This document shows, one piece after another, positions 924 through 21,786 of a stretch of DNA of 56,217 bases. The position numbers and the translations under genes are program-made. Position 1 is the first letter of the stretch; each line of letters opens with the position of its first letter. The DNA is from a candidate division Kazan bacterium RIFCSPHIGHO2_01_FULL_44_14 (GTDB lineage: Bacteria > Patescibacteriota > Kazan-3B-28): NCBI GenBank assembly GCA_001771185.1, contig METB01000001.1:252631-308847 (forward strand). The letters run 5' to 3'. The notes beneath the pieces are model-generated. The model did no database searches. It saw only the letters and a program-made list of their open reading frames with translations, and was not told where the DNA came from.

Positions 924-3281
924 TTGATGATGGAAGAAACAATCTCGGCGGTTAAAACTGATAAACAATTAGTCACCCGAGTGGGCAAAGTATTGTCTCA
1001 TGATAAAGCCAAGGGCGGATTTTCGACTTGCTTAATGTATGAACCGGACGAAGAAGCCCAAAAGGCCCATGGCTCGTTGTATTTTGTGGTGGACATCGGC
1101 AGTCCTTCTCCCCTCACGCCCGACATCGCTTACAACTTGATCGACATTGTCAAAGAAGAATATTACAGCGACCTGGAACTTTCGGCTAGCGAAAGTTTTG
1201 AAAATGCGCTTAAAGCGGCCAACGAAGAATTGGCAGCAATCGCCAAAGAGGGCGAGAAAGATTGGATCGGCAAACTCAATGTGATTGTAGCGGCAGTAGC
1301 GGATCGGGAAATTCATTTGGTTCAGCGCGGGACAGCCGAAGCTCACCTATTGCGGGGCAACAATATGATAAACTTGTCCAAGGGGATGTATACCCCTGGC
1401 GAGAGTTACCGGCCAGAGGAAACTTTACTGAACTTGATTGAAGGCGAATTGGAAGTAAACGACAAACTGATTGTCAGTACTTCGGAGTTGTTCTACTACA
1501 TCTCAATCGAGAAACTTCGTCGGATGATGGAAGGACAGACCCCAGCCCAGGCCGCCAAGCGGTTAGCTTCGGTTTTAGAGCAGGAAGATGAAATCCATCG
1601 GACTAGTGTGATGGTGGTTGAATTTTCCACCCCCGAATTGTTAGCTCAAGAAGAAGAAACCGAACCGGCCGAGAATTGGGTGGGCGAACCGCAGGAAGAA
1701 GCCCCGCGCCGGGCCAAAAAATTAAGTTTCTTTAAAGGCGGAACCACTACGACTTTGCCAGTTGAAGATAAGACCAAAACCGTGGCGGAAGCCCTGGAGA
1801 GTATTCCTCAAGAACAAATTTCCGAACCACCTCGCCCGACTGTGGTTGAGTCCAGGTTCACTCCAACCCTACCAAGAGAAGAATTGGTAATTGATGAAAC
1901 CAACGAACCCAGTTCTCATCCTAGCAAAGTTATGCGACCAAGCTTGGGACAGATTAAACCGAGTATTAACATCAGTGACTACCAAAAGAAAATCAAACTG
2001 AATTCTAACCAACTTCGCAACGCTGGAACGATTTTGTGGAAAATCCTCAAAGTGGCTGGATTGATTATCTTGACTGGAGTGGATGCGGTCTTTACCATCG
2101 TCAGCAACGCCGTCAAGAATATTAAGAAACGGCCTGGCGGAGATCGAATTCTCTTGGGTGTCGTGGTGGTGTTAATAATCGCAATCGTTGGTTCTACCCT
2201 GGCGTTTGCTAGTGGTCAGAGCAATCGGATCGGTTCAAAGAAAGCCATCACGGCTTTAGCCGACGCCCAACAAAAACGGGATGCCGCTCAAGCGGCTCTA
2301 ATTTATGAGGATACTGCTAAAGCCCGCGAACTTTTGACCGAGGCGTATTTGGCCGCCGAATCAGCCACCCATAACAAACGGACTCAAACCGAGGCCACAG
2401 TATTATTAGTCGAACTGCAGAAACAAATTGACAATGTTAGTAATGTTACCCGCTTCGTTGATGTTCAGCCAGTGGCCGACTTTGGCACACTCCAATCACA
2501 ACTAGCGTCCAGTGGAAATGCATCAGCCCAAGTTAAATTAGGAAACTTAATCGTATTGGGTGGCAATGTTTACACCATCGATCCAGACAATAACAAGGTC
2601 TATAAATACAAAGCCAGCAGTGGCGAGGTAGCCATCATCAACTCGCTGGTTTCGACTGACAAAAAATTCAAACTCGGCGCAGTTTTAAGCGAGACCGACC
2701 TGATGTTTTATACCACTCCCCCGCAGGTTTATTCACTCAATTTAGACAGCAACAGTATGGCAGTGAAAGGTCTGGATGCCGGAAGTTGGAACAATGCCGA
2801 TTCCATCATCCCTTATACCGATCGGCTGTATTTCTTGGATAGCGCCAATAATCAAATCTGGAAATATAAAGCCATCCCCGAGGGCTACACTCAAATCGCC
2901 CCATATTTCGAGAATAATGTTGGGACTGATTTAAGTGGCGCTCTGGACTTCGGGATTGAAGGCAATGTCTTCGTCTTACTGCTAAACAATGTAATCAAGA
3001 AGTTTAGCGGTGGAGGCGAAGTTCAGTTTGGTATCAACGGACTTCCGGGAGTTTACCCAGCGGTTGGCAACATTACCAGTTTATACATCAGCAACGATAC
3101 GCCGCTCTATCTACTGGATGCAACTAATCATCGGGTACTGGCCTTTGATACCGAAGGGACTTATGTCGCCCAGTACATTTACGACAATATTGATAATCCG
3201 ACCGATATGACAGTGGACCAAGCTGGAGGGTTTATTTACTTGAGTGCTGGGACAAAGGTATACCGTCTTCCTCTTAAATAA
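924..3281 (+). CDS. Membrane protein: N-terminal PP2C/PPM-like domain (probably inactive), Pro/Glu-rich linker, TM helix, coiled coil, C-terminal beta-propeller (NHL-like)
   Basis: 785-aa ORF with PP2C-like topology (LYFVVD, ENALKAAN, GxAEAHLLRG, GELEVNDKLIVST), hydrophobic ILLGVVVVLIIAIVGSTLAFA, and repeated YxxD...IxKY blades. Confidence 0.7.
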   Translation: MMMEETISAVKTDKQLVTRVGKVLSHDKAKGGFSTCLMYEPDEEAQKAHGSLYFVVDIGSPSPLTPDIAYNLIDIVKEEYYSDLELSASESFENALKAANEELAAIAKEGEKDWIGKLNVIVAAVADREIHLVQRGTAEAHLLRGNNMINLSKGMYTPGESYRPEETLLNLIEGELEVNDKLIVSTSELFYYISIEKLRRMMEGQTPAQAAKRLASVLEQEDEIHRTSVMVVEFSTPELLAQEEETEPAENWVGEPQEEAPRRAKKLSFFKGGTTTTLPVEDKTKTVAEALESIPQEQISEPPRPTVVESRFTPTLPREELVIDETNEPSSHPSKVMRPSLGQIKPSINISDYQKKIKLNSNQLRNAGTILWKILKVAGLIILTGVDAVFTIVSNAVKNIKKRPGGDRILLGVVVVLIIAIVGSTLAFASGQSNRIGSKKAITALADAQQKRDAAQAALIYEDTAKARELLTEAYLAAESATHNKRTQTEATVLLVELQKQIDNVSNVTRFVDVQPVADFGTLQSQLASSGNASAQVKLGNLIVLGGNVYTIDPDNNKVYKYKASSGEVAIINSLVSTDKKFKLGAVLSETDLMFYTTPPQVYSLNLDSNSMAVKGLDAGSWNNADSIIPYTDRLYFLDSANNQIWKYKAIPEGYTQIAPYFENNVGTDLSGALDFGIEGNVFVLLLNNVIKKFSGGGEVQFGINGLPGVYPAVGNITSLYISNDTPLYLLDATNHRVLAFDTEGTYVAQYIYDNIDNPTDMTVDQAGGFIYLSAGTKVYRLPLK

Positions 3282-3297: not shown

Positions 3298-3716
3298 CTG
3301 TCATTCTGATTTTGCTATCCAGCAGAAGAAGAATCTAGACCGTGAGGTCTTTTTTGTATGTTTTAATTTGTTTCCCCGAGGGACCGAGGGGTTACCTTAT
3401 TATTTTCTTTTTCGAGCGCATAACGGCGCTCGACCCATTCCCGCTTTGTCTTGGCAAAGCGGGGTAAACCGCTTCCGCAGTCGCCCTCTTTATTTATCTA
3501 ATGAAATCCCCTTACTGCTCTCGCCAAACTTGCCGTCCTAATTTTTTTGTCATTCTGAGCGAAGTCGAAGAATCTAAAAAATTAGGACGACTTCGAACAG
3601 CTGGCTTCACGACGGCAATGACTTGGATTCAGGACACTCGGGCTCCAATGCTCGGTGGAGATAAGACAAACAACTAATCCTCTTCAGTCATCCCCGCCTA
3701 CGAGTGGGAATCCAGA
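3298..3716. repeat. Intergenic cluster of GTCAT-type REP-like palindromes
   Basis: gtcattctga...gaagaatctag (~3300); gtcattctgagcgaagtcgaagaatct (~3550) inside the inverted repeat cgtcctaattttt/aaaaattaggacg; gtcatccccgcctacgagtgggaatcc (~3688). Confidence 0.75.
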
Positions 3717-3746
3717 CAATAAAACTAAATCTGCAATAATAGATTA

Positions 3747-4187
3747 GTGAGTATCCTCAACCGTCAGGCACATTTTAATTACACCATTCTCGATACCCTC
3801 GAGGCGGGTTTGGTGTTGACTGGCAGTGAAGTAAAATCTATCCGGGCCGGACAAGTCAGTTTACAAGAGGCCTTTGCTAAAATCCGTGGGGGCGAGGCCT
3901 GGCTAATAAATTGCCACATCGCCCCCTATAAACAGTCAGCCGACCAGGACTTGGAACCGACTCGCGCCCGCAAGTTGCTATTGTCCAAAAAGGAAATTAC
4001 TTCGCTCGACCACAAGCTTTCAACTGAAGGGTTGACATTGGTTCCATTAAAATTCTATTTCAAAAAGAATCGAGTCAAAGTTGAACTCGGGCTAGGTCGG
4101 GGCAAGAAAAAATTTGATAAACGGGAAACCATCAAACGCCGAGAAACAGAACGAGAGACCAGACGGAAGATTGGAAAAAAGATGTAA
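3747..4187 (+). CDS. smpB: SsrA-binding protein SmpB
   Basis: NRQAHFNYTILDTLEAGLVLTGSEVKSIR, RARKLLL, GLGRGKKKFDKRETIK; GTG start; near ssrA. Confidence 0.98.
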   Translation: MSILNRQAHFNYTILDTLEAGLVLTGSEVKSIRAGQVSLQEAFAKIRGGEAWLINCHIAPYKQSADQDLEPTRARKLLLSKKEITSLDHKLSTEGLTLVPLKFYFKKNRVKVELGLGRGKKKFDKRETIKRRETERETRRKIGKKM

Positions 4188-4191
4188 GAAA

Positions 4192-4221
4192 AAGCCGTTC
4201 TGCTGACCAGCAGAACGGCTT
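4192..4221. terminator. Hairpin between convergent genes (likely terminator)
   Basis: Perfect 14-bp stem aagccgttctgctg/cagcagaacggctt immediately after the smpB stop. Confidence 0.65.
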
Positions 4222-4224
4222 AAT

Positions 4225-4395
4225 TTAAAAAGTACGACTCTCCTCTAATTCTGGCATCCGAAAAGGCGTTGGCAGAATCGCGACGGTGGCACTTACTTGC
4301 AAATCGGCTAGTTTATCTGGCTCGATTTCTGATTTACCGTGTCCCAATACCAGTAGGATTCCGATGATAAACACAGAGAAAATTAATCCTCTCAT
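4225..4395 (-). CDS. Small (56 aa) secreted/membrane protein, below the ORF-track cutoff
   Basis: MRGLIFSVFIIGILLVLGHGKSEIEPDKLADLQVSATVAILPTPFRMPELEESRTF*; GGAGG RBS at 4401-4405; directly follows the 4405..4656 ORF. Confidence 0.6.
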   Translation of the reverse strand: MRGLIFSVFIIGILLVLGHGKSEIEPDKLADLQVSATVAILPTPFRMPELEESRTF

Positions 4396-4404
4396 CTCTA
4401 CCTC

Positions 4405-4656
4405 CTAAACGGCTTCACAGTACACAGCCCGGCCGTCTTGCAAAACCCCAAATGCTTGGCGGTGGGGATTGTAAATGTCATGCGGTCCGTCGCCAAAACT
4501 ATCCAAAAATGGTCCTTCGACAAACTGCTTGTCCGTGCAGAGTTGGTCGAATTCCGCTTTCGGTAATTCTATCTGTTCACGGATACCCTTATCCTTATCG
4601 CGGAAAAATTGGGCACAACCAAATCTGGGCTCGTTTTTCTCGTTTTCTTCACTCAC
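4405..4656 (-). CDS. Hypothetical protein (83 aa)
   Basis: GTG start with GGAGG RBS 7 nt upstream; protein-like composition; tandem with 4225..4395. Confidence 0.6.
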   Translation of the reverse strand: MSEENEKNEPRFGCAQFFRDKDKGIREQIELPKAEFDQLCTDKQFVEGPFLDSFGDGPHDIYNPHRQAFGVLQDGRAVYCEAV

Positions 4657-4813
4657 TCACATCCCTCCAATTTCAAAGAACTTCTTAGGTACTCCTAAGA
4701 CGAATTTACTTTACATCTAAACCCAAAAATCCGCAACTGGTGCTTATATTCTCGGTTAGTGGCAACGCCATGCTGTTCAACAGAATCTACGACTGGGGAA
4801 ATCCTTCCTGCGT

Positions 4814-5059
4814 TCAATCTCGAAACAGATGTTTATTGGCAAAGGCCTTGCCAGAATGTGATTTTAGGTATTGCTCAAATTCTTTAGCAGTATTCTGTTT
4901 CTCAAAAGCTGAATAAAAAATCAAATCCCAGGGTTTGTATTTGGCAGTATATTTCGACTGTCCTGTATTGTGAGCCTTTACTCTTTGCTTTAACTCATTG
5001 CTAAATCCAACATAAATCCTACCATCAACATGGCTTCTGATAGTATAAACGTAATACAT
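4814..5059 (-). CDS. Small GIY-YIG nuclease (SLX1/UPF0213-like), copy A
   Basis: MYYVYTIRSHVDGRIYVGFSNELKQRVKAHNTG...KPW...E; the likely start is ATG 5059, since the longer track ORF reads through a repeat leader. Confidence 0.9.
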   Translation of the reverse strand: MYYVYTIRSHVDGRIYVGFSNELKQRVKAHNTGQSKYTAKYKPWDLIFYSAFEKQNTAKEFEQYLKSHSGKAFANKHLFRD

Positions 5060-5243
5060 ATTTTGATTATATGCCCATGCTTCGTTCTGTGAACTACGCA
5101 GGGCAGGTTCGCTCCCTGGGTGCGACTCTACTGTTTCAATCAAAACGAAAACAGCCCGAAAGGGCTTTTCCGTTTTGGTGGTGCATTCTGGATGAAGTGG
5201 GAACTTGGTTGAGGGAAAATGGTCGGCAATTCGACCAGCTGTC

Positions 5244-6476
5244 TTACGATTTTTGTAGTAGAACCGCTGTTGTTTGAAGATCAGTTTTGTATTGTAAAGT
5301 CCTGGGGGTGGAATGTAGCCCTAACTGCCCAGCAAGACCAGACACTTCTTCCGGAGTAATTCCTTTTTGGAAAGTTTGCTTACCGGGGTGAGACCAATAG
5401 CCGTCGTTATGGGTCTGCCAATGTTTCTTCGCTACTTCCGACTCTATCGCTTTGAGAGAACGGGTTACAACCAGGAGTTTACCGGCTGGGTTGAGGTACT
5501 CGGCTGCTTGTTTAAGCACCTTCAACCTTTCTGCCATAGTGGGCAGAACATTCAATACGAATATGAGAGTTACTAAATCGTATTTGCTGTCTGGGAGCTT
5601 ACCCCAACCGAAAGGTATGTGAGGGTCAAACCCATCGGCAACTAAACCAGATTTGCGATAATGCTCTACATCTCTCCCGTAACCGCAACCATAGTCCAAA
5701 ATTGATTTGATGCCTTGTGTAGTCACTAATGTATCAGTTACCCAATGAGCAAATGGAGAAGCTATTTTGCGAGGGATTGCAGTTTTATAAGAAGCTACAC
5801 TCTTTTCTACAAAATTTAATACCTGGGCGGAATGATCAGTAAACCTATGCTCACCCTCCCTAACGGTATGGTCGTATTGAAAAGTTGTTTGCAGAATAAA
5901 TACGGGATCTACCAAGGTAAGGTCACATCGGAAACAAATCTCCTGATTGAGCCTATTTCGTTTTATAGTAAACCCCTTCCCGTGCCCAGCATCGCTATAA
6001 GCTCGGCTACTTATTAGTTCTTGGAACGAACCTCGATCCAACTCGGAATTAAAGTTACTAATGTTTGTACCCACAAGACCATCCTCAGGCAAGGGCGCCA
6101 GATTAAAGTCACCCATCAAAAAAGCTGGCTCGTTGTTCAGTCGCTTTAACTCTTGAAGCTGTTCTGCCCGTTTGGCGCAAGTGTAAGCATCAAGATAAAC
6201 ATTAAAAAGTGGTACCCCTTGAAATACAATTTTCTGTACATAGGGCAAATTCAGCTCAACCCTCCCATTGCTGCCAGAGTTCAACCATATTGCCAGATTG
6301 GTGTTGGAGACCAGTAGCGACATTCCTGGTATATGCAAAACTTCGTTGCTCGGTTGCTTGGATGGCTCTTGCACCAGGAGAACATCAGGATTGATACCGC
6401 CTAACCATTCCAGAAACTCGCTCTTGGCAACAGGATTGCCCATCCTCTTATTTAAATTGATTGAAACTACTCTCAT
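5244..6476 (-). CDS. Fusion of an EEP (DNase I/ExoIII-like) nuclease/phosphatase and a class I SAM methyltransferase
   Basis: EEP motifs SINLN, LVQEP, GDFN, RCD, TDH; MTase motifs ILDYGCGYGRD, GFDP, VLNVL...ER, TFQK. Confidence 0.85.
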   Translation of the reverse strand: MRVVSINLNKRMGNPVAKSEFLEWLGGINPDVLLVQEPSKQPSNEVLHIPGMSLLVSNTNLAIWLNSGSNGRVELNLPYVQKIVFQGVPLFNVYLDAYTCAKRAEQLQELKRLNNEPAFLMGDFNLAPLPEDGLVGTNISNFNSELDRGSFQELISSRAYSDAGHGKGFTIKRNRLNQEICFRCDLTLVDPVFILQTTFQYDHTVREGEHRFTDHSAQVLNFVEKSVASYKTAIPRKIASPFAHWVTDTLVTTQGIKSILDYGCGYGRDVEHYRKSGLVADGFDPHIPFGWGKLPDSKYDLVTLIFVLNVLPTMAERLKVLKQAAEYLNPAGKLLVVTRSLKAIESEVAKKHWQTHNDGYWSHPGKQTFQKGITPEEVSGLAGQLGLHSTPRTLQYKTDLQTTAVLLQKS

Positions 6477-6542
6477 ATATCAAGGATATCAGTTCCAATA
6501 ACACTTTGCTGTCATAAAATAAACTAATCCCACAAAGGAGAT

Positions 6543-6785
6543 TTAGAATAGGCGCTTGTTGGCAAAGGCTTTACCGGAACCAGCTTTCAAGTAGGTTTCG
6601 AATTTTTCAGCTTGAGTCTTGGTCTTGAAGGCGATATAGCAAACCACATCCCAAGGTTTGAATTTACTGGTGTGGGGAGATTGTCCGGCATTGTGAGATT
6701 TTAGTCGTGCTTTCAAATCGGAAGAACTGCCAATGTATGTTTGGGATTTATCTTTATGACTTTTGAGCAAATAAACATAATACAC
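6543..6785 (-). CDS. Small GIY-YIG nuclease, copy B
   Basis: MYYVYLLKSHKDKSQTYIGSSSDLKARLKSHNAG...KPW...SGKAFANKRLF; GTG start; clear paralogue of copy A. Confidence 0.9.
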   Translation of the reverse strand: MYYVYLLKSHKDKSQTYIGSSSDLKARLKSHNAGQSPHTSKFKPWDVVCYIAFKTKTQAEKFETYLKAGSGKAFANKRLF

Positions 6786-6923
6786 ACTTTTAGTATGCTC
6801 TACTACGTTCTGCTTTACAGCAGAACTTCGAAGGGCAACCTTCGCTATTTATCTCTACATAAAATCTGTGCCATCAGCACACCTTGAGCGGCGCAGCCAA
6901 CCGTAGCTCGATAGAGCGAAGGT

Positions 6924-7297
6924 TGGTGGAGCTGGGGGGATTCGCACCCCCGTCCAGCGAACGATATCTACTAGCTTCTACATACATAGTCGATTTGTTG
7001 GGTATCCATTGTTATCCTCAAACCGACAAAGCAATAACAACTTAAGCCACTATTATCTTAGTTCTACCCAATGGCCGAGTAGAAAGCGGCTCGAATAATA
7101 TAACACCGCTATTCCACCCATCCGAGCAGAGGTGGGAGCGATGGCACTAGCAATTAGGCCAGTGCTGGCGCGAAAGCAAAGCTTTCGCTAAATGCTTTGT
7201 TGGCATTTGTAGTTTGGTGTGATTTTGCGTTACGACACCACTAACGGTATGCGACCAAGTAGTTATCAAAGTCCACTGTCGAAAGCTATACAGCCCC
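6924..7297 (-). ncRNA. ssrA: tmRNA (one-piece, ~374 nt), predicted tag (A)ANKAFSESFAFAPALA
   Basis: 5' GGGGCTGTATAGCTTTCGAC; 3' GGACGGGGGTGCGAATCCCCCCAGCTCCACCA; acceptor GGGGCTG/CAGCTCC with G3.U70; tag frame 7204..7154. Confidence 0.95.
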
Positions 7298-7419
7298 ATA
7301 ATCTGCACGCGGACAGTGTAGTCCCCCCTTCCCTGCTGGTCAAGAGATGTGATTTGACACACAACCATATCAGGATTAGGATGGCGGCGGTTGTTAATTT
7401 GTTCCTTTTGGGAGGAATC

Positions 7420-7743
7420 ATGGCAATATACCAAGAGCCACTTTCGCTCACAACAATGATTTCACGGTTCGGCCTACTGATAACCGTCGAAATCGCTCAC
7501 TGCCGTGGCTGGTTGAAAAATGTATTACCAGAGTTGGCTCTCCTGGAACTCACACGGTTGTCTGGGCAGACAACCGGAGAGCTTCGATTGACCATCATAG
7601 CCGAGATAGAGCAACGCCAGAAAACTCGCGAGTTTTCGTCGCAATATCCTTCTCCGCCGATTCTTCCAGAGTCGACTGTTGTTAATCTAGAGCGAACTGC
7701 GCGAGTCCAAGAACTGGCTTACACGATCGAGCTCTATGTCTAG
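7420..7743 (+). CDS. Hypothetical protein (107 aa)
   Basis: GGAGG RBS then ATG 7420 (the longer track ORF overlaps tmRNA antisense); followed by a terminator. Confidence 0.55.
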   Translation: MAIYQEPLSLTTMISRFGLLITVEIAHCRGWLKNVLPELALLELTRLSGQTTGELRLTIIAEIEQRQKTREFSSQYPSPPILPESTVVNLERTARVQELAYTIELYV

Positions 7744-7752
7744 GTCTAGTGC

Positions 7753-7782
7753 GACGGGCTGATTATCAGCCCGTCTTTTTTT
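7753..7782 (+). terminator. Intrinsic terminator
   Basis: gacgggctgat-t-atcagcccgtc followed by a T run. Confidence 0.75.
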
Positions 7783-10129
7783 GTCTACGCTTACGGTCAA
7801 TTAGTATCGCTCCTCCACCCAATACCAATTGGGTGATTTGCAGTAAAATAAACCACCACAGCCAGTTGATGCGAGACGGATGGCCCAAGAATCCTGGCAC
7901 TGGTCCACCGAGGGGCGTGTACATTTCCACCACTTTTTCATCTAGCGGGGTCTGATTTTCGACCACACTCGGGCTTTTACCAAAAGCCATTGCCACTCGA
8001 CCATCATTCAACTGCACGACTTGTTGGAACCAATTGTAGCCAGTCAGATAAGAATTTGATGCGGGATAAACTTTATGATTCACGAAATCCAACACCTCGC
8101 CAAGTTCCGCAGAGGCCCCAGAGATACCAGATATTACAGGGCTGATGTAAACAGTATCGTTTGGCAGTAAAAATGTCTTAGACCGAACATGATAATCCGT
8201 CAACACCCCCTCAAAAAATTCTGACTGACCGGTCTTAATATCAAAGATTTCGTATGATGGTGACATATTTGGAGCCACATCCAAACCGTCATCCAGCGAA
8301 TTTTTCGATTCCCCTTTTACAAAACGGGCTTGTTCATCTCCGCCAACAATCAGAACTTTATTGTCTGAAAGTAAAATTGCTGATTGATAAGCCCGACCGA
8401 CTTTTAGTTGGCCGATTTCTTTGCTAGTCATCATCTTTGGGTCAAATATTTCGACACTCCGCGTCAGTCCTAAAATATGCCAACCAGCCGCATCCTCCGC
8501 ACTAGCATTATAGTTGCGCAGGTACCGCCCTTCTCCAAATTCTTCGTTAGCTGGTAATTTTTCAATAAAACTATGTCCGCCAATAATGAGTAGTTTCCCG
8601 TTAGGTAATTCCGTCACCGACTGACCGGCCAAGCGCGGAACCGCCAGCTGAACTAGGTTGGTATAGCCGGAGGTCTTTTTCTTGTCTTGCTGAACCAACT
8701 TCCATTGGCTGGTCTTGGTGTTCCACTGACTAATTGCACTCCGTATCATCACATTAGCAATCACGCTTTGAGCGGTATTAGGAACAAGTTCGGGACGAGG
8801 AGTAATTGCAACTCCGCCAGTCGAAAAACTCCAAGCTGTAGCAATCCCACCCGCTCCCTTGGCTAGAGGCAATTGGGTTGGATTATAAGTTTGAGGGATT
8901 GTGACACCGCCCTGTCCGCTCCGAATATATTTGGTAATATCGGGCCAATCATCCCCAAGTTTCAATGTCCCAGTTTTGGTCTTAGCTGTGTATCGCCCGT
9001 CCTCAATGGTTTGGGCAAAGACCTGTTTGTCATATAACCAACGACTCAACCAATAGTCCCTCACCACACTAACAGCGCCAGTATTGGGATTAAATATTTG
9101 ACCGTAAACTTTGTCGTCATTTCGACTCCACTTAAATAAAACTTTTCCATTATTCAATCGCACCGCTACTTCAACACCAGTTAAATGGCTTTGGGTTGCG
9201 GGATATTTCAATTGACCCCGATTTTGCCAGACCCCTTCATCCTGCCAGTTGGTGGCTAAACTTAGTGGCAGATTTTTGACATTGTCCTTGGCTCGTTGTT
9301 GATCTACCGAGAGCAAAGTAGGTGGTGTATAAATCGCCAGCGACGGAGCAGACGAGGCAACCGCCGACCCAAAAGCATCAGCTGTTAGCCCATTGGAACC
9401 AAAATAATAGAACGCTATTTTCCCATCCCCCAACAAGATGGCGTCACTGGCTGACAGATTTTTAGGTCTGGCTAGAGTTTCAGTCGGAGTATCTAAAATC
9501 GCCAAATCATACAAACTGTAATAAAGCGTCTTGAGATTCTTGCCAATTAAAAGCATCATCCCATCTCCCGCATAAACAAAGTCATAGCCAAATGGTGCTT
9601 GGAGATTAAAACTGCGCTTAACTGCCTTCGAATAGAGAGCAACTTGGTTGCTGACCCCCGCTTCGGTCATTAATAAAATCAGACCACTGGGAAGCGAAAT
9701 AGTTTTTTGGTAATACCTGGTTCGGCCGACAGAATCAATATAAGTTGGAGATCCGTTTTTTCCCCTGGCTAGTTCTTGGCCAACCTCAACATTCCCATCC
9801 AGATGAACTTCTTTTTGTTTGGCTTCGGCATATAAAGCGTATAAATCCGTGAACTGGTCATGTCGACCTTGGAGATAGGTCGGTGACCACTCTCCCGCAT
9901 TGGCCGTACCAGAAATAACTGGAGTAAATGGAATTACTGTTTCCTGACTTGGTCTAAACCACCACCATAGACCCAAAGCAATCAACGCAATTAGCAAAAC
10001 CAGCCACCACCAGCGATGGTGAGGTTTAGGCGCCGGAAGTAGTAACAGAGGACGAGATAGAGACGGCCGGGACTGAAGTCCAATCGACTTTGGAACAGAG
10101 TTTTTTTGAGTTGTTTGATTTCGCCCCAT
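7766..10129 (-). CDS. Membrane-anchored protein with C-terminal Kelch/galactose-oxidase-like repeats
   Basis: N- and C-terminal TM helices; RLAGQSVTELPNGKLLIIGG, GRAYQSAILLSDNKVLIVGG. Confidence 0.75.
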   Translation of the reverse strand: MGRNQTTQKNSVPKSIGLQSRPSLSRPLLLLPAPKPHHRWWWLVLLIALIALGLWWWFRPSQETVIPFTPVISGTANAGEWSPTYLQGRHDQFTDLYALYAEAKQKEVHLDGNVEVGQELARGKNGSPTYIDSVGRTRYYQKTISLPSGLILLMTEAGVSNQVALYSKAVKRSFNLQAPFGYDFVYAGDGMMLLIGKNLKTLYYSLYDLAILDTPTETLARPKNLSASDAILLGDGKIAFYYFGSNGLTADAFGSAVASSAPSLAIYTPPTLLSVDQQRAKDNVKNLPLSLATNWQDEGVWQNRGQLKYPATQSHLTGVEVAVRLNNGKVLFKWSRNDDKVYGQIFNPNTGAVSVVRDYWLSRWLYDKQVFAQTIEDGRYTAKTKTGTLKLGDDWPDITKYIRSGQGGVTIPQTYNPTQLPLAKGAGGIATAWSFSTGGVAITPRPELVPNTAQSVIANVMIRSAISQWNTKTSQWKLVQQDKKKTSGYTNLVQLAVPRLAGQSVTELPNGKLLIIGGHSFIEKLPANEEFGEGRYLRNYNASAEDAAGWHILGLTRSVEIFDPKMMTSKEIGQLKVGRAYQSAILLSDNKVLIVGGDEQARFVKGESKNSLDDGLDVAPNMSPSYEIFDIKTGQSEFFEGVLTDYHVRSKTFLLPNDTVYISPVISGISGASAELGEVLDFVNHKVYPASNSYLTGYNWFQQVVQLNDGRVAMAFGKSPSVVENQTPLDEKVVEMYTPLGGPVPGFLGHPSRINWLWWFILLQITQLVLGGGAILIDRKRRQKKTG

Positions 10130-10232: not shown

Positions 10233-13200
10233 TTGAATAAAACAAAAATCAACCCCATGCCAAAAACTGTTCTGACGATAAAATCACGCCGGCTATTTGC
10301 CTTTATTACCGCCTTCACTTTGGTGTTCCAAAGTGTAATCCTGGGCGGTATTTTTGGTGGCTTCCCGGCTTATGCCTCAACTGCTACCTATAATTTCACT
10401 ACGCCGGCCGAATATACAGTCACGGACACCTTCGCTATCCACGGTGGCACGGCTCACTTTAAAATTGACTGGGCCGACGTGGCCTCCTCTATCCCATCTG
10501 TTGCTACCATTACTGACCTGATCAGTCCGGCCAGCGCGGGCTTGGTCTGGTCGGCAACCGGTGATGTAGATGGAGCTTATAAGTCAATCAACTACGGCGG
10601 TAACTGGAATAATATCAGCATCAACGCTGATTTTATCCCTGATGATTTTGAGGTTACCCTAGGCGACGCGGGTGCCAACGCGGTCAATCTATTTGTCGGT
10701 GGTTCCGACACGGTAGCCGGCGCCTACGCCTACTCCACCAACAACGGTACGAACTGGACCTACAACGACACCGCTCTGGTCGGTGCTCAAAACATCGTAT
10801 CGGTGGCCCACAAGAGCAGCGCCACCAGCTACACTTGGGTATTTCACCGAGACGGAGCGATCTCGCGGACCGAGGATATCGACGTCATCACTATTTGGGC
10901 ATTCGTGGCTACACCATTCGCCGACGCCCGCCAACTGCTCTGGGACGAAACGAACGGTCTATTAATCGCCTCCGGAGGTGATCTGGTCGACGGCAAGGTG
11001 TCCTTTTCTAATGACAACGGGGACAGTTGGACCTCGGCCACCCTGCCGGGGAGCCCGCCGGTCACCATTGATAAATTGGGTTACAGTAACGGTTACCTGT
11101 ATGTGGGCGGCTCTGGTTATGTAGCCGTGGGAGATGTCTCCGCTGGACTGAATAATGCCGGCTCTTGGACAGATGTATCGGCCAATATCAACAGTGGCAA
11201 CTTCACCGCTGTAACGGAATTTCTTAACGCTAACGAAGTCATGCTCGTGTCGGTAGATGCCACTACTGGTATTGATAACGGACAGGTCTATAGCACCCTA
11301 AACGATGGTACTAATTGGCTGACGCACGGTGTGGCCACCGCCGCCACAATGCCAGGCCCACTAACGCGCCTATATAGTAATGGACAGTTCCTGTGGGGAG
11401 TTGATGATGACGTCGGGTCTCCCTCGACTTACGTTGGAGATTTTGATACCGACAGCGCCTCGGTGGTTACGACAGTCGGTATCAGCGTCGCTACTTTGTC
11501 GGCCATCGATATTACTTATAACTCGGCGAGCGAGGAAGACAACGTCGGCGTGGCACTTGGGTTTGGCGTTGATCCGGCCGGCACTTGGTACTATCACGAC
11601 GGCGGTGCCTGGACTAGCGTGGTGGGTGGCGACTACACCAACGCCAACATCGAAGCCCAGCTCGACACCAATCTGGGTACTTTTGATGACGAGGTCGCCA
11701 TCACTGGCGATATCTATTTAAAAATTTACAGTAAGGGAACCGTTGAAGGCAGTGGAGCTTATATCCACGACCTATTCCTAATCGATAATATCGATGTAAC
11801 CTATACGGCTGGGACGCTAGCCGTAACTTCTCCTAATGGCGCAGAAACTTGGGTAGTCGGTAGTACCCATGATATTACCTGGACTAGCACCGGGTTTGGT
11901 GCTGGTAACATTATTGATATTGACTACTATTCTCCTAACAATGGCGGAGGATGGAACAGTATTATTGCTAACACCGCCAATGATGGAAGTTATACTTGGA
12001 CCCTTCCCAACGATCAGACTAATCAAGCGTTGGTTCGGGTTTCGAGTGGAAGTGTGACTGATTCTAGCGATGCGGTATTTACCATCTATATCCCAATTCG
12101 CAGTCCCGACGAAAATGACCCAGCATCCCAAGTTGACGCTCTGCCCCAATATAAAACTTCGTCATCTTTCAATGTCAGTGCAACAGCATCAGACAATGTT
12201 GGAGTTCAAACGGTTTCGCTTTACTACCGTTCCGACCAAAGCCCAACCATTCAATTGTGGGATACGGACAATAGTGCTCCGTTCGTGTTTAACTTCACCT
12301 CACCCCACGGAAATGGTCTTTATCAATTTTATTCTGGGGCCGTTGACTTCAGTGGTAATGACAACTGGCCAGAGAAACTAATCGCCGGACCGATAGTTGA
12401 GGCCTCCACGACTGTTGATACATTCGGGCCATACATTACCACCCAAGCCCCCTATCCCAACCAAACCGAGGTGGCAATTACCCAAGATATCATCGTGGAG
12501 TTTTCTGAACCAATGAATACTGGGACTTTTGGCTACCAATTGTACGAGCAAAATAATCCGACCAAACCAGTCACGATTATCAGTACTACTTGGAGTAACA
12601 GCGATACCAAGCTGACCGTCAAACATGCTAATTTTAGTTATAAAACTTGGTACACTTTCCATGCTGTGACCGCCACCGATAAGGCCGGTAATATTCTACT
12701 AGAAGGTACGCCGGGAGGCGGCTGGGGAATGGGAATTGAAGTGTACTATCCTGAAGGGACCTGGGATTTTGAGACCGCGCCCAAGCGCGACCCCGACTTA
12801 ACTTCCTCAACTATTGAGGTAAGCGACGGTACTCACGCCGGTAAATATCTACCCAGCGAAACCGCTCACTATACGATTACCCTACGCAATACCAGCGACT
12901 TACCGGCTAACAATGTCCAGGCCTCATTAACGGTATCCGAGGGAATCAAAATCGTGTCCGGCAGTATCACTAAAACCGGAGGGACAATCCAGATTCATTA
13001 TGCTGGTCTATTGATTACTGGTTTCACTTGGTCCGGAACGGTCATCAAAGGCACCAATGTAATTATTCGATTCAACGCTACCGTCAATACACCGGCTAAT
13101 ATTTTGGAAATCGAGCAAGGCATCGCAATCGATGACAATGTAAATGAGATGTTTCAACCGGCCCCGGCAGTGATTCACATTGCCAAGAATCCTGATTTTA

Positions 13201-15230
13201 CCGCTTCAACTAAGACAGTTGATAAACCCGAAGCAGTACCGGGGACCTTGCTCGAATATAACATTACCATCGTCCATCAGGGCAATACTGTAGTAGACGC
13301 TTTGACAATCGACAACATCCCGACTAACACTACTTATGTCAACGGCTCTTTGACTGGAGATACTGGTTGGCAGACCTTGCAATATAATCCGGTTAATAAT
13401 CAAATCCAGGCCCAGGCCCAAATGCTGTCGAATTTCCCGTCTGGTCGTCCTTGGGAAATGGGTGTCCCAGAAGATGACGAGGGGTGGATTCCTACCACTC
13501 TGCAATTTAGTTTTTGGGTCAGTATTAATAATGGCACCGAAGGTGAAATCAGTAATACCGCCACCGTGTCAGATCCGGATGTGCCGGGGAGTTCTTTTAC
13601 TACCGATCCACCGGCAGTCACTTTGGTCCCTGGCGATAGTACCGAGGAAAAATTTTCTCCGCAGATCGTCAACCAATCTCCTGACAATGGCAGTTTTAGC
13701 GCGCCATTAAAAGGCACCATTAACGCTCAATTCAGCAAATCGATTAAGACCGATACATTAACTTATAGTGTGAATCTTGACGGCTATCCAGTTGATACTA
13801 CTGGTTGGCAAGACAGTTGGAGCCAGGAAGATAAACTATGGACACTCACTCCAGCAGAAAGTTTAGAAGTTGGTGCCCCTTATGAAGTTGAAATTAGTTA
13901 TGCCGAGGATACCGATGGCAATGTGCTGGTTGATGGACCATTACCCAACCCCTGGAGTTTTACGACGGTTGACCCAGTAGTAACTATCACTTCACCTAGC
14001 GAACTTTTGGTAGAACTAGTTGCTGAACAAATCAGCCCAGTTTTTACTGTGACTTTAAAAGACGCCCTGTCGGGTCAGACCTATACTGCCGAAGAAAATA
14101 CTACGATTGGACTAGGGGCTTGGCTAGGCGGAACTCCGCGCACCGCTGGTGTATTCTTGCTCCAAGATGGGAGTAACTGGCGGTATGTGACATCGATTAC
14201 GCTTACAACTGGTCAGTCACAAGCCCAGTTTTATTATCGCGACAGTAATATTTCCGATCCTGACTACATTACCATCACCGCTTATGAAAATCCGTCACAG
14301 GGTTGGGGTGACGCTGAAAAGAACGCGATCGTCCGAGGTGACGCACCTCCGGCTGATCATTTAATCGTCAACATCGATACCACCCTATTCACCACTAGTC
14401 AATTTAGCCCACCAATGGCAGTCCAGGCCCAAGACCAAACCGGGAAATTCTTGCGATTGCCGGAGATCTTATATTTCTACACTTCTTCCGACACGGGTCG
14501 ATTCTATGATGCGAATCACAATGTCCTGCCCGAATGGCTAACCATCCAAGGATTTAATCCCACTACCAACCTACAGTACTCCCAGCCAGGGGCAACTGGC
14601 AGTGCAACTTTCTATTATTGGGATATCACTCCAGGCGCTTACTTGGTCACCATTGCCGACCAGGCCCCGCTGACTCCGGATACCGGCTTCCGCAATGTCA
14701 GCGCGGTGTTCAATGTCGCAAACCTATTAGAAGAGGAAGAACTGCTCGAAGAATTAGAAGAAGTCGAAGACGAAACTGGCCGAGTTTTAGCCGAAGTGAC
14801 AGTTGAACCGACCGAGACCACTTTACTTCCTGGTGAGAAACAAACCTTTACCGCCAAGGCCTACGACGAAGATGGCAAAGAAATAGAAAATGTAATCTTT
14901 AGATGGTATGTGTTGGCCGGGGGCGGTACAATATTAAAGACCGGTAGCAAAGATGGTTCTCATGGTTCCGTTTTCACTGCTGGTCAAAAGCCCGGCATCT
15001 ACTATGACACTATTCTGGTCGCCACCCTTTACAACGGCAAGATTAATTACGCCACAGCTGGTGTAACCGTAACTGACATCGTTGAATACGGTGGCCCAGC
15101 CCGACTCCCCACTACTGGTATCTCTGGTCTGCAATTGATTCTATTGGCCCTGACTTTGTTAGCCGCAGTGGCTCTGGCCTGGGTTGAACATTATGATAAG
15201 ACCCACTTCAGAGAAGAAAGTAATGAGTAA
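10233..15230 (+). CDS. Giant secreted surface protein (BNR-like repeats, Ser/Thr-rich Ig domain, SbsA-type Ig, DUF11-like, Big_2-like) with C-terminal LPxTG-like sorting signal
   Basis: 1665 aa; signal/TM segment; YSTNNGTNW, SFSNDNGDSW; VTSPNGAETWVVGSTHDITWTS; IIVEFSEPMN; LPTTG + hydrophobic stretch + charged tail. Start is TTG 10233 or ATG 10257. Confidence 0.85.
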   Translation: MNKTKINPMPKTVLTIKSRRLFAFITAFTLVFQSVILGGIFGGFPAYASTATYNFTTPAEYTVTDTFAIHGGTAHFKIDWADVASSIPSVATITDLISPASAGLVWSATGDVDGAYKSINYGGNWNNISINADFIPDDFEVTLGDAGANAVNLFVGGSDTVAGAYAYSTNNGTNWTYNDTALVGAQNIVSVAHKSSATSYTWVFHRDGAISRTEDIDVITIWAFVATPFADARQLLWDETNGLLIASGGDLVDGKVSFSNDNGDSWTSATLPGSPPVTIDKLGYSNGYLYVGGSGYVAVGDVSAGLNNAGSWTDVSANINSGNFTAVTEFLNANEVMLVSVDATTGIDNGQVYSTLNDGTNWLTHGVATAATMPGPLTRLYSNGQFLWGVDDDVGSPSTYVGDFDTDSASVVTTVGISVATLSAIDITYNSASEEDNVGVALGFGVDPAGTWYYHDGGAWTSVVGGDYTNANIEAQLDTNLGTFDDEVAITGDIYLKIYSKGTVEGSGAYIHDLFLIDNIDVTYTAGTLAVTSPNGAETWVVGSTHDITWTSTGFGAGNIIDIDYYSPNNGGGWNSIIANTANDGSYTWTLPNDQTNQALVRVSSGSVTDSSDAVFTIYIPIRSPDENDPASQVDALPQYKTSSSFNVSATASDNVGVQTVSLYYRSDQSPTIQLWDTDNSAPFVFNFTSPHGNGLYQFYSGAVDFSGNDNWPEKLIAGPIVEASTTVDTFGPYITTQAPYPNQTEVAITQDIIVEFSEPMNTGTFGYQLYEQNNPTKPVTIISTTWSNSDTKLTVKHANFSYKTWYTFHAVTATDKAGNILLEGTPGGGWGMGIEVYYPEGTWDFETAPKRDPDLTSSTIEVSDGTHAGKYLPSETAHYTITLRNTSDLPANNVQASLTVSEGIKIVSGSITKTGGTIQIHYAGLLITGFTWSGTVIKGTNVIIRFNATVNTPANILEIEQGIAIDDNVNEMFQPAPAVIHIAKNPDFTASTKTVDKPEAVPGTLLEYNITIVHQGNTVVDALTIDNIPTNTTYVNGSLTGDTGWQTLQYNPVNNQIQAQAQMLSNFPSGRPWEMGVPEDDEGWIPTTLQFSFWVSINNGTEGEISNTATVSDPDVPGSSFTTDPPAVTLVPGDSTEEKFSPQIVNQSPDNGSFSAPLKGTINAQFSKSIKTDTLTYSVNLDGYPVDTTGWQDSWSQEDKLWTLTPAESLEVGAPYEVEISYAEDTDGNVLVDGPLPNPWSFTTVDPVVTITSPSELLVELVAEQISPVFTVTLKDALSGQTYTAEENTTIGLGAWLGGTPRTAGVFLLQDGSNWRYVTSITLTTGQSQAQFYYRDSNISDPDYITITAYENPSQGWGDAEKNAIVRGDAPPADHLIVNIDTTLFTTSQFSPPMAVQAQDQTGKFLRLPEILYFYTSSDTGRFYDANHNVLPEWLTIQGFNPTTNLQYSQPGATGSATFYYWDITPGAYLVTIADQAPLTPDTGFRNVSAVFNVANLLEEEELLEELEEVEDETGRVLAEVTVEPTETTLLPGEKQTFTAKAYDEDGKEIENVIFRWYVLAGGGTILKTGSKDGSHGSVFTAGQKPGIYYDTILVATLYNGKINYATAGVTVTDIVEYGGPARLPTTGISGLQLILLALTLLAAVALAWVEHYDKTHFREESNE

Positions 15231-16625: not shown

Positions 16626-16700
16626 GCCGGAGTAACTCAGTGGTAGAGTAGCTGTTTCGTAAACAGCAAGTCGTGGGTTCAAATCCCACCTCCGGCTCCA
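16626..16700 (+). tRNA. tRNA-Thr(CGT)
   Basis: Cloverleaf GCCGGAG...GCTGT TTCGTAA ACAGC...GTGGG TTCAAAT CCCAC CTCCGGC TCCA. Confidence 0.96.
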
Positions 16701-16755
16701 TCATTGAGGTGGAGTACAGTAATATTGTGATTGGATATATTTTGGTCGTTATGGC

Positions 16756-16830
16756 CGGGGTGTGGCGCATCGGTAGCGCGCGCCGTTCGGGTCGGCGAGG
16801 CAGCAGGTTCAATTCCTGTCACCCCGACCA
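16756..16830 (+). tRNA. tRNA-Pro(CGG)
   Basis: CGGGGTG...CGCCG TTCGGGT CGGCG...GCAGG TTCAATT CCTGT CACCCCG ACCA. Confidence 0.95.
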
Positions 16831-16860
16831 AAACAGACCAAGATATGCGCGGTCTAACTA

Positions 16861-16887
16861 AAAGACCTGAAAATTGTTCAGGTCTTT
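16861..16887 (+). terminator. Hairpin after the tRNA pair
   Basis: aaagacctgaa/ttcaggtcttt 11-bp stem. Confidence 0.55.
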
Positions 16888-17356
16888 CGGCATATAGGGA
16901 ACATTAATGGGACCCATCGAAACAATTGCGTTAGCCGGTTAGAAAATCTCTCGCTTAGTTCAGCATGTTTGAGTCCCGGCAATCCGGGACGAGTTTGCGT
17001 TACCCGCCCGCAACGCTTTGCGTAGCAATGCGGGCGAGGAAACCAGAAAGAGCGATTTTCTATTTCGGCTAGCAATTGGTGAGTGGGCTCGCTTTTGGGC
17101 GCCACCCGTTTGGCGACGCAAATGGGTGGTAATTAATTGGGCGCAATTTCGCGCCCATTATAAAACACCACTAGTTTGCCGCCCTTATTTCTGGTTCTGT
17201 GGAGACCAGGTGGGTCCCCGCTCCGCATTCCCCCAGGAAAGCGGAATTAGGGGTCCCATAAAATTGGGTGTTGAGCCAAATATTGGTGGCAAATTAATGG
17301 TGCTAATTTAATTTTAGCACATATAATTTGGTGTCAATTTGATGGTTTGGGGATAA

Positions 17357-18040
17357 TTATCCAAACGGGATAGTACTGGAGCCAACAAACCAATGCATTA
17401 ATGTAACAATCGGGTCTAGCAGCCGAAAAAGTATGTTTACCCCTAGCAAACTATCGGCAAAAATCAAGAATAGCAGTAGAGTCGGACCGATTTGTTCTAG
17501 CCACATAATCCGCTCGTAACTGACGCCCAGATTATCAAGAATTAGATAGAGGATTTTTGAGCCATCTAGTGGCGGGATTGGAATCAAATTAAATGCCGCC
17601 AACCAAACATTGAGAGTGACTAGAGTTGCCAAAAAAATGTAAATCTGGTCAGTCGGCAGGGCCTGATAATTAATCCAGTAGATTCGTCCCGGTAAGGCCA
17701 AAACAAATGCTAATAACAAATTACTAATTGGACCGGCTAAGGCCACCAACATCTCTCCCCACCGACCACGCCGAACGAAGTTTGGATTATATGGCACCGG
17801 CTTGGCCCAACCAAAAATCGGAGCGTGAACAAAATACAAAGCCAGTGGCAGAGCAATCGTCCCGATTAAATCAATGTGAGCCAATGGATTCAGAGTCAAC
17901 CGACCAGCTGCCCGAGCAGTCGGATCGCCCAGAGCAGTCGCCGTCCAAGCATGAGCAAATTCATGTACAGTAATCGCCACCAGGATGGCTACTATTGAAA
18001 AGATAAGAGTGTCTAAACCCTGAAAAATCGCAAGCGACAT
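17357..18040 (-). CDS. Site-2 protease (M50 family)
   Basis: HEFAH, GRLTLNPLAHID, GWAKPVP, AGPISN, FNLIPIPPLDGSKI. Confidence 0.95.
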   Translation of the reverse strand: MSLAIFQGLDTLIFSIVAILVAITVHEFAHAWTATALGDPTARAAGRLTLNPLAHIDLIGTIALPLALYFVHAPIFGWAKPVPYNPNFVRRGRWGEMLVALAGPISNLLLAFVLALPGRIYWINYQALPTDQIYIFLATLVTLNVWLAAFNLIPIPPLDGSKILYLILDNLGVSYERIMWLEQIGPTLLLFLIFADSLLGVNILFRLLDPIVTLMHWFVGSSTIPFG

Positions 18041-18151
18041 AAAAACCTTGTCCTAAACTATATTTTTTGCTAACCTCATAAAGTCCCTATCTTATTCAGT
18101 TTATCAGTCATTCCGCCTCCCCGTCCACTTCTTAATTCTTAGCTACCTACC

Positions 18152-18182
18152 ATTTGGAATTTGTCATTTGTAATTTGTAATT
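18152..18182 (+). repeat. AT-rich heptad repeat immediately upstream of rpmB
   Basis: ATTTGGA ATTTGTC ATTTGTA ATTTGTA ATT. Confidence 0.7.
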
Positions 18183-18191
18183 TTTCTAAAG

Positions 18192-18389
18192 ATGTCTAAA
18201 ATCTGTTCTATCTGCAACAAACAAATCACGACTGGAAATAATGTCAGCCACTCAAAACGGCGCACTCGGCGGACTTGGTTGCCAAATTTAGGGACTGCTA
18301 AAATCACCGAGAACGGCCAGACCAAAACCATCACGGCCTGTACTCGGTGTTTAAAGACCCTGTCCAAAATTAAGCGAGGCAAGAAGTAA
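18192..18389 (+). CDS. rpmB: 50S ribosomal protein L28 (Zn-binding C+ type)
   Basis: [10 protein letters not shown]...[19 protein letters not shown]...CTRCLK. Confidence 0.97.
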
Positions 18390-18431
18390 ATTCTACCCCC
18401 ACTGACCACTAGCTACTAAATGTGCTAGATA

Positions 18432-19085: not shown

Positions 19086-19193
19086 ATGACCTCCTATTAT
19101 TCCCCCTGACCCTGGTTTCAGTGTATCATAAACCACGAAAGGGGTTCATGACGCCGCCATAGGTCATGTAAAGGGATGGGGATAAATTGACTT

Positions 19194-19250
19194 GCGGGTG
19201 TGGTTCAATGGCAGAACCTGCCTACCGGCAGGCAGGCACGTCCCGCCCCA
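19194..19250 (+). pseudogene. tRNA remnant whose anticodon and T arms are replaced by a REP palindrome
   Basis: GCGGGTG TG GTTC AATGGCA GAAC + CCTGCCTACCGGCAGGCAGG (19217-19236) + CACGT CCCGC CCCA. Confidence 0.6.
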
Positions 19251-19256
19251 GATCCA

Positions 19257-19330
19257 GTGGGATTAGTACAATGGTAGTATGCAACCTTCCCAAGGTTGAG
19301 ACGCGAGTTCGATTCTCGTATCCCACTCCA
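19257..19330 (+). tRNA. tRNA-Gly(CCC)
   Basis: GTGGGAT...CAACC TTCCCAA GGTTG...GCGAG TTCGATT CTCGT ATCCCAC TCCA. Confidence 0.95.
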
Positions 19331-19541: not shown

Positions 19542-19598
19542 ACCCAAAGAAAAAAGCCACAAAAGATAAGTGGCTTTTTTGAAATGAGTTTGCCAGGT

Positions 19599-21773: not shown

Positions 21774-21786
21774 GAAAAATTGTCAT

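Follow-up and report, generated by a model that had tools for sequence, protein, structure and literature searches.

What does a solitary gene that joins a nuclease to a methyltransferase in one polypeptide do in a bacterium with a 0.70-Mb genome? The gene that raises this question lies in a stretch of 56,217 nucleotides (nt), here called the window, from the candidate division Kazan bacterium RIFCSPHIGHO2_01_FULL_44_14 (Patescibacteriota; assembly GCA_001771185.1, contig METB01000001.1, positions 252,631 to 308,847 of the forward strand). Its product combines an N-terminal EEP phosphodiesterase domain with a C-terminal S-adenosylmethionine (SAM)-dependent methyltransferase domain:

5244..6476, minus strand: complete open reading frame (ORF) of the EEP-methyltransferase fusion, 410 amino acids (aa), stop codon at 5244-5246
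5811..6476, minus strand: EEP phosphodiesterase domain of the Xth/APE1/LINE-1 endonuclease (EN) type, residues 1-222, delimited by PF03372, Foldseek and the catalytic residues
5247..5804, minus strand: class-I SAM methyltransferase domain of the TIGR04096 N-domain clade, residues 225-410, delimited by PF13489 and TIGR04096

The answer to which we give about an even chance is that the fusion is an accessory processing-and-marking module, whose EEP domain would act on the DNA backbone or on DNA ends and whose tethered methyltransferase would act on a phosphate-bearing nucleotide or nucleic-acid substrate. Like its structural relatives, the EEP domain would cut or trim DNA at an abasic, modified or 3'-blocked position, and the methyltransferase would methylate, at that site or close to it, a substrate that bears phosphate, be it a nucleotide or the end of a nucleic acid. 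Together the two domains would first process and then mark DNA or nucleic-acid ends, as an accessory module drawn from a mobile toolkit of nucleotide and DNA modification. We infer that the protein is neither a classical sequence-specific restriction-modification enzyme, nor a Dnd component, nor a housekeeping apurinic/apyrimidinic (AP) endonuclease.

The gene is intact, and its product, an enzyme of two domains, is predicted to be active. The 410-codon frame is open; of the 97 positions that the family conserves at 85% or more, the protein has changed six and retains 91, and none of the six changes affects a catalytic residue or a SAM motif; the variable inter-domain linker of the family is missing from it. 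The AlphaFold2 (AF2) model, computed with 100 homologues in the alignment, is very confident (mean predicted local distance difference test score, pLDDT, 94.4; predicted template modelling score 0.78). The public annotation places the start at M12, giving a 399-aa protein that skips window positions 6444-6476 (minus strand), and this start would delete the family-invariant S-x-N-L-N-K-R catalytic strand of the EEP domain. Because all aligned homologues begin with M-R-x-x-S-(I/V/L)-N-L-N-K-R, the correct start is the one at 6476, as in the earlier reading of this DNA made from its letters (hereafter the original prediction). The only other sequence in the 90% cluster of the protein is the same protein called from a later start.

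The N-terminal domain matches PF03372 (Exo_endo_phos; residues 6-191, E = 4.5e-8, 33.5 bits, above the gathering cut-off of 24.5). The full EEP motif set that had been read in this part of the protein is indeed there, namely N7 and N9 (NLNKR), E37 (QE), Y94, D123 and N125 (GDFN), D185 (RCDL), and D214 and H215 (TDHS), and these residues are invariant or nearly so across 100 homologues. The AF2 model matches the four-layer alpha/beta sandwich fold of solved EEP nucleases, and a Foldseek comparison with the PDB gives as best matches LINE-1 EN, TRAS1 EN, archaeal and bacterial AP endonucleases, Neisseria NExo, E. coli ExoIII, Mth212, APE1 and Tdp2 (E from 1e-13 to 1e-10; TM-score on the target 0.66-0.79); all of the top 50 structures are of the Xth/APE1/L1-EN/Tdp2 type. 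Likewise, the family profile matches PDB sequences of the Xth/APE1/L1-EN type (an L1-EN variant at 9.9e-10, NExo and ExoIII at about 1e-6), with no other EEP branch among the matches. The domain shares with Xth/ExoIII-APE1 and the LINE-1/TRAS1 endonucleases the fold, the full catalytic set and the Xth-type motifs GDFN, S-F-N-x-E-x-D-R and R-C-D-L. It differs from them in its smaller size (about 222 aa, less than either ExoIII or APE1) and in the attached methyltransferase, and the housekeeping AP endonuclease of the lineage is a different protein, Nfo. Its partial match to the xth equivalog TIGR00633 (18.4 bits, E = 0.0012) is so far under the cut-off of 99.05 bits that the domain is to be regarded as Xth-like rather than as an Xth orthologue. 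It is thus a compact metal-dependent phosphodiesterase of the ExoIII/APE1/LINE-1-EN type, with a predicted active site that is complete.

The C-terminal domain matches PF13489 (Methyltransf_23; residues 257-354, E = 2.3e-11, 44.1 bits, above the cut-off of 27), and all methyltransferase motif strings listed in the original prediction are found in it: LDYGCGYGRD, DGFDP, FVLNVLP and TFQKG, with the glycine-rich LDYGCGYGRD and the acidic D284 conserved. Modelled alone (residues 225-410, 186 aa), it adopts a Rossmann-like fold with a pLDDT of 89.1. The best NCBIfam match is TIGR04096 (residues 228-377 against model positions 3-141 of 478, E = 6.4e-18), a family named 'DNA phosphorothioation-associated putative methyltransferase' by association and of putative function. 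The resemblance to this family that had been pointed out reflects real homology, but its 64.8 bits stand against a family cut-off of 150 bits, only the N-domain of about 140 residues is shared, and the C-terminal domain of about 340 aa is missing. Homology between the methyltransferase domain and its TIGR04096 counterpart extends from end to end and takes in the clade-specific HKTA..R helix and the DG..(T/S)....TFQK hairpin; the domain is 30-38% identical over about 150 residues to the N-domains of dnd-linked TIGR04096-like proteins of about 480 aa. Across 70 sequences of both clades the HKTA..R helix, DYGCGRG.D and TFQK are invariant; invariant R236, R317, D358-G359 and the T-F-Q hairpin are common to the two, and R236, R317 and R339 are invariant or nearly so, which would suit an anionic methyltransferase substrate. 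The domain falls in the same clade as the N-terminal domain of TIGR04096, while the fusion protein is not a TIGR04096 member. A profile-profile match between alignments A3 and A4 was set aside as circular, as A3 already holds TIGR04096 N-domains.

The two kinds of protein differ in what surrounds this common domain. TIGR04096 proteins bear the conserved C-terminal domain, for which no Pfam or PDB match was found, and the window protein has the N-terminal EEP domain instead; TIGR04096 genes adjoin dndBCDE or ssp-like genes, whereas the window gene does not. The 43 loci that match the methyltransferase domain only are TIGR04096-like genes, many of them next to DndA/B/C/D/E-like genes or other recurring sets. 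In several Rhodobacterales-like loci and one Bryobacterales locus (L037, L040, L059, L070) the TIGR04096-like gene follows genes for proteins of about 1800 aa and about 625 aa, not dnd genes, so the methyltransferase clade is not confined to classical dnd neighborhoods. The closest solved folds of the domain are CcbJ, DnrK/RdmB, ToxA, CypM, Trm9 and glycine-sarcosine N-methyltransferase. It thereby groups with small-molecule and natural-product enzymes (CcbJ, DnrK/RdmB, ToxA, CypM), an outcome that the original prediction had itself named among those that would count against it. Single-chain restriction-modification enzymes of Type IIG/IIL, such as the MmeI-like ones, also hold a nuclease and a SAM methyltransferase in one polypeptide. 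However, they combine a PD-(D/E)xK nuclease with a gamma-class N6-adenine methyltransferase bearing NPPY and with a target-recognition domain, all of which are absent from the fusion protein.

How widespread is this architecture? The original prediction had not recognized it as described, and a literature search likewise returned nothing relevant on the EEP-methyltransferase architecture, on the function of TIGR04096 or on the cassette gene combination described below. In databases, however, it is common: a word-indexed search gave 262 full-length homologues of the same architecture, and an exhaustive search of 1.84 billion representatives of clusters at 50% identity gave 1521 matches at E <= 1e-3, 492 at E <= 1e-10 and 105 clusters at E <= 1e-30. 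The homologues come, among other sources, from Streptomyces, Micromonospora, Saccharothrix, Nonomuraea, Pseudonocardiaceae, Acidobacteriota and Melioribacteraceae, and are annotated merely as 'methyltransferase domain-containing protein'. The best non-self homologues are only 44-45% identical to the window protein by BLASTP (best E = 1.8e-104 at 100% coverage). Against the family as a whole it is 36-46% identical over the full length, collinear and with the same motifs, and it is placed inside the family tree, where it forms a group with P0003 and P0004 (support 98/96) that lies within a set of cassette-linked clades. The fusion is, on these comparisons, a widespread and unnamed family built from two known kinds of enzyme, and the window copy is a new solo variant of it. 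No structure matching both domains was found in BFVD.

Parts of the architecture also occur separately or in larger proteins. There are stand-alone methyltransferases of about 190 aa (such as P0162, 53% identical) and stand-alone EEP proteins of about 235 aa (such as P0194). In P0159 the EEP-methyltransferase unit is joined to a DNA_pol_A_exo1 3'-5' exonuclease domain and in P0160 to HNH_4, and P0254 joins HAD_SAK_2 to a methyltransferase domain (44% identical over 165 aa). A possible role as a nucleic-acid end-repair enzyme, the alternative offered in the original prediction, gains some support from these domain fusions.

The genomic neighborhoods of the homologues show that the family mostly belongs to a multi-gene cassette. 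Among 40 tabulated loci with a full-length fusion, some of them redundant or truncated, a LysR-like gene is present in 28 and ends 10-30 nt before the fusion gene or overlaps it. The recurrent partners are genes for a DCD-like protein of the dCTP-deaminase fold (28/40), an HIT-like protein (27/40), a conserved protein of about 300 aa (26/40), a MazG-like protein (24/40) and an IscS/DndA-like cysteine desulfurase (22/40); a PPDK_N/phosphoenolpyruvate (PEP)-utilising enzyme is encoded in six loci and a ThyA-like gene together with Dcm in one. In the typical layout the LysR-like and EEP-methyltransferase genes diverge from an operon of the DCD-like, HIT-like and ~300-aa genes. In five loci (L002, L004, L102, L105, L110) we saw a constant core of these five genes next to an exchangeable module, which is a DndA/IscS-like desulfurase, a PPDK_N/PEP-utilising enzyme, or a ThyA-like protein with a C5 DNA methylase. 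The HIT-like protein, which bears an HxHxH motif, finds HIT proteins of solved structure at E = 3e-8, and the ~300-aa protein gave no match in Pfam or among PDB sequences. The core recurs in Actinomycetota, Acidobacteriota, a Melioribacteraceae metagenome-assembled genome and unassigned metagenome contigs, and often adjoins an integrase, resolvase/TrwB-like or primase-like gene. One homologue lies directly after AddAB-like genes, one beside EndoIII-like glycosylase, Dcm, AIPR, DUF4420 and Z1 genes, and one beside an SLFN-like helicase. The single-gene system that the original prediction had envisaged does not describe most of these homologues. The window protein is an orthologue-level member of the same family, but its clade has no cassette in the flanks available: none was found within 8 kb on either side of P0004 or downstream of P0003, whose upstream flank ends at a contig end.

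Several of these features favor DNA as the substrate of the putative processing-and-marking module: the EEP domain is of the Xth/L1-EN type, some homologues are fused to HNH or DEDD nucleases, there are associations with AddAB-like, EndoIII-like, Dcm and dnd genes, and the cassette encodes deoxynucleotide enzymes. Other findings weigh against such a module. First, the top 50 fold matches of the methyltransferase domain include no DNA methyltransferase, the nearest being small-molecule, peptide and tRNA methyltransferases; further, no (D/N/S)PP(Y/F/W) motif was found in the 410-aa sequence, which has no target-recognition domain. Second, the homologous methyltransferase domain of P0254 is fused to the HAD of predicted RNA-repair 'Swiss Army Knife' (SAK) proteins, which were reportedly defined by Burroughs and Aravind in 2016. 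Third, no methyltransferase was found near the one stand-alone EEP locus of this clade that was examined, so the two activities need not be coupled on one substrate. Fourth, the branch leading to the window protein is long, with 1.4 substitutions per site where the median is 0.44. Finally, most cassette partners (DCD, HIT and MazG) act on free nucleotides, so the substrate could be a nucleotide rather than a polymer.

This last point leads to a different enzyme altogether, one in which the EEP domain would be a phosphatase or phosphodiesterase of a free, possibly modified nucleotide and the methyltransferase would methylate the product as a step of a modified-nucleoside pathway. The natural-product and small-molecule fold neighbors of the methyltransferase are in line with it, as is the company of DCD-like, HIT, MazG-like, ThyA-like, PEP-utilising kinase-like and cysteine desulfurase partners. 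So too is the coupling of the fusion gene to a LysR-type regulator, a class typical of metabolic operons. Against this, the type to which the EEP domain belongs, Xth/L1-EN, is specifically that of nucleases, the HNH and DEDD nuclease fusions and the AddAB-like adjacency point to polymers, and the remainder of any such pathway is absent from the window genome. We consider such a nucleotide enzyme rather improbable.

The window genome itself, a single contig of 699,981 bp that is 99.7% complete, holds the gene without its partners. All sampled relatives have 0.4-1.2 Mb, from which a lineage of small genomes of the Patescibacteria type may be deduced. Searches with tblastn found no LysR-like, DCD-like, HIT-like, ~300-aa or MazG-like partner in it, and the only relative of a cassette-type protein is an IscS-like desulfurase about 91 kb from the fusion gene. 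The dnd genes, already noted to be missing from the window, are absent from the entire 699,981 bp, as are ssp genes (tblastn with DndB/C/D/E-like and Ssp-neighborhood proteins). The fusion gene was not found in any of the 40 nearest relatives; in the phylum as sampled it is present in two of 401 genomes, the window genome and one (G048) of 400 others, where it is also solo and lies among housekeeping genes. The fusion is the sole EEP protein of the window genome and unique to it among family-level relatives, whereas Nfo is kept there and in 10 of 12 relatives. Because Nfo is conserved across the lineage and covers this role, the fusion is an extra gene, and the candidate role of housekeeping AP endonuclease was rejected. 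The copy in the window is thus specific to its strain, was acquired horizontally and stands alone. Others that stand alone come from separate lineages (L001, L100 and L124 besides the window), which argues that the fusion protein can work alone.

Is the solo copy, then, a functionless orphan, the remnant of an acquired cassette that lost its partners and is now drifting? The absence of the partner genes, the long terminal branch and the missing inter-domain linker fit such a history. However, the intact 410-codon frame, the retention of every catalytic and SAM-binding residue among the 91 positions kept of 97 conserved ones, the very confident structure model and the presence of solo copies in at least four lineages speak against decay, and we hold it to be very unlikely.

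A more specific and quite unlikely form of function for such a copy would be a self-sufficient 'cut-and-cap' enzyme whose chemistry would be new. Its Xth-like domain would break the backbone of DNA at a lesion, modified site or end, and its methyltransferase would place a methyl group on the backbone or on a terminal phosphate or phosphorothioate, not on a base, leaving the site non-ligatable or marked. The solo copies would then be a minimal defence or repair module, and in the cassette forms the fusion would supply the part that acts on DNA in an undescribed system built on nucleotides that contain sulfur or carry some other modification.

What, finally, does the place of the gene on the chromosome say? 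The fusion gene lies 3' of the tmRNA gene, a position that had been read from the letters and that ARAGORN and Rfam bear out, in an interval closed on its far side by a convergent smpB:

6924-7297, minus strand: tmRNA gene (ARAGORN; Rfam RF00023, 143.5 bits)
6543-6785, minus strand: GIY-YIG-1
5153..5237 (5237-5220 and 5166-5153), minus strand: two terminator-like hairpins after the fusion stop codon, from a consensus scan (pattern match only)
4814-5059, minus strand: GIY-YIG-2 (as a TTG-start 109-aa ORF, 4814-5143)
3747-4187, plus strand: smpB, convergent with the fusion gene
4188..6923, no strand: variable interval from the smpB stop to the tmRNA 3' end, with ORF83, GIY-YIG-2, the fusion gene and GIY-YIG-1

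Along the minus strand the tmRNA is followed first by GIY-YIG-1 and the fusion gene with its two terminator-like hairpins, then by GIY-YIG-2 and ORF83, and last by the convergent smpB; the hairpins past the fusion stop codon suggest that the transcript ends there. Rfam reports the tmRNA only in 3500-7800, with no riboswitch or leader RNA. In the relatives the corresponding interval holds 0.5-1.3 kb of different cargo: one small ORF in G009; a near-identical GIY-YIG gene and a 162-aa ORF in G008, which belongs to a different genus; and in G002, of the same genus, an inverted tmRNA followed by a 197-aa membrane protein. The inversion of the tmRNA in G002 relative both to smpB and to a conserved gene for a surface protein of about 787 aa (L096, G002:C1:406500-412000 against window 3747-7297), indicates a local rearrangement at the locus. 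The description of this place as a tmRNA island thus stands as far as a variable interval with cargo is concerned, but the interval is not demonstrably integrative. No integrase was found in it, nor does the 3' end of the tmRNA recur there as an attachment (att)-type repeat: its top-scoring local alignment with the sequence downstream was no better than with shuffled sequence. A 21-nt sequence does occur twice, at 4196-4216 and 6806-6826, in the form of two palindromic GC-rich terminator-like hairpins; on these grounds an integrative tmRNA island was rejected. The interval is bracketed by these hairpins, at 4192-4221 after smpB and at 6806-6826 after the tmRNA (core GTTCTGCTG...CAGCAGAAC), which by pattern match read as terminators.

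An accessory gene that is specific to its strain and lies in a variable interval on the 3' side of a tmRNA might be taken for the cargo of a hot spot, encoding a single-gene anti-phage defence in which the EEP domain would nick invading DNA and the methyltransferase would mark self DNA or license the nuclease. Homologues are indeed found on mobile DNA, in the company of integrase, resolvase or TrwB-like genes, and beside AIPR/Z1/Dcm or SLFN-like helicase genes, and paralogues of the methyltransferase domain stand beside dnd/ssp-type defence-modification loci; the rarity of relatives on viral contigs (4 of 2.9 million) is neutral in this respect. However, PADLOC-DB 2.0.0 gave no significant match to the fusion protein (only mad2, E = 0.0052, 13.7 bits) and, in PADLOC 2.0.0, none to the cassette partners save a generic DndA/SspA match for the cysteine desulfurase, so that a known defence system was rejected. 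With just 186 aa, a small-molecule-like fold and no target-recognition domain, the methyltransferase makes sequence-specific self-marking hard to picture, and the interval offers neither an integrase or att repeat nor a specific partner: the flanking GIY-YIG genes (about 80 aa) belong to a family of at least nine copies in the 0.70-Mb genome. We therefore regard an anti-phage role as unlikely.

The place of the gene between tmRNA and smpB also recalls RNA repair. A Pnkp/Hen1-like end-healing enzyme that protects sealed ends would use the EEP domain to remove a 3'-phosphate or 2',3'-cyclic phosphate from RNA that has been cleaved and the methyltransferase to methylate the terminal ribose against re-cleavage. 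Pnkp/Hen1 and 'Swiss Army Knife' RNA repair share with the fusion the concept of an end-healing phosphoesterase with a methyltransferase, and the fusion of the homologous methyltransferase domain to Pfam HAD_SAK_2 is a concrete case; the RNase D-type DEDD 3'-5' exonuclease joined to one homologue could act on RNA, and EEP enzymes of the CCR4 and ANGEL families act on RNA 3' ends. On the other hand, the phosphoesterase here is an EEP domain, not a calcineurin-like or HAD one, it matches the DNA-acting Xth/APE1/L1-EN branch rather than the CCR4/ANGEL branch, and there is no kinase, ligase or Hen1 match (TIGR04074 is not among the NCBIfam matches at E <= 0.1). Moreover, most associations are with DNA or deoxynucleotide genes, and the tmRNA adjacency is not conserved in any homologue examined. 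RNA end repair is, in our judgment, unlikely, and we continue to prefer an accessory module acting on DNA or nucleic-acid ends.

Both halves of the protein are thus familiar kinds of enzyme, and their fusion is common, with more than 100 clusters across Actinomycetota, Acidobacteriota, Bacteroidota-like lineages and small-genome bacteria. Because the same methyltransferase domain accompanies DNA phosphorothioation loci, the substrate of the solo protein offers a way into the role of the dnd-associated methyltransferase; it also bears on the purpose of the LysR/DCD/HIT/~300-aa/desulfurase cassette and on whether methylation of nucleic-acid ends or backbones takes place in bacteria. That tiny genomes carry solo copies suggests that the protein works alone, which makes it a convenient and tractable model for the whole family.

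The surroundings of the gene hold some further features. GIY-YIG-1 has an 84%-identical paralogue at C1:236546-236902, whose 96-nt upstream leader is 96% identical to window 6829-6923, and the GIY-YIG family may be mobile or may target tRNA/tmRNA 3' flanks. The TTG-start 109-aa ORF of GIY-YIG-2 is probably over-extended; a sigma-70-like promoter at 5093-5066 (11/12, pattern match) falls inside this long ORF, and the internal ATG at 5059 gives MYYVYTI..., comparable to the MYYVYLL... start of GIY-YIG-1. A 41-nt element located between the fusion gene and GIY-YIG-2 (window 5176-5216) is 93% identical to positions 4073-4113 of the G002 locus L096; in both genomes it lies downstream of the tmRNA and in the same direction, just beyond a cargo gene that is not the same in the two. 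The element occurs once in the window genome, is unrelated to the tmRNA 3' end, and may mark the boundary of an exchangeable segment. Large predicted surface or repeat proteins are encoded around the locus at 10233-15230 (plus strand, 1665 aa), 7766-10129 (minus strand, 787 aa) and 924-3281 (plus strand, 785 aa), of which the 787-aa and 785-aa genes are kept in relatives. Six tRNA genes (Thr, Pro, Gly, Asp, Arg, Pro) cluster within about 5 kb at window 16626-21861.

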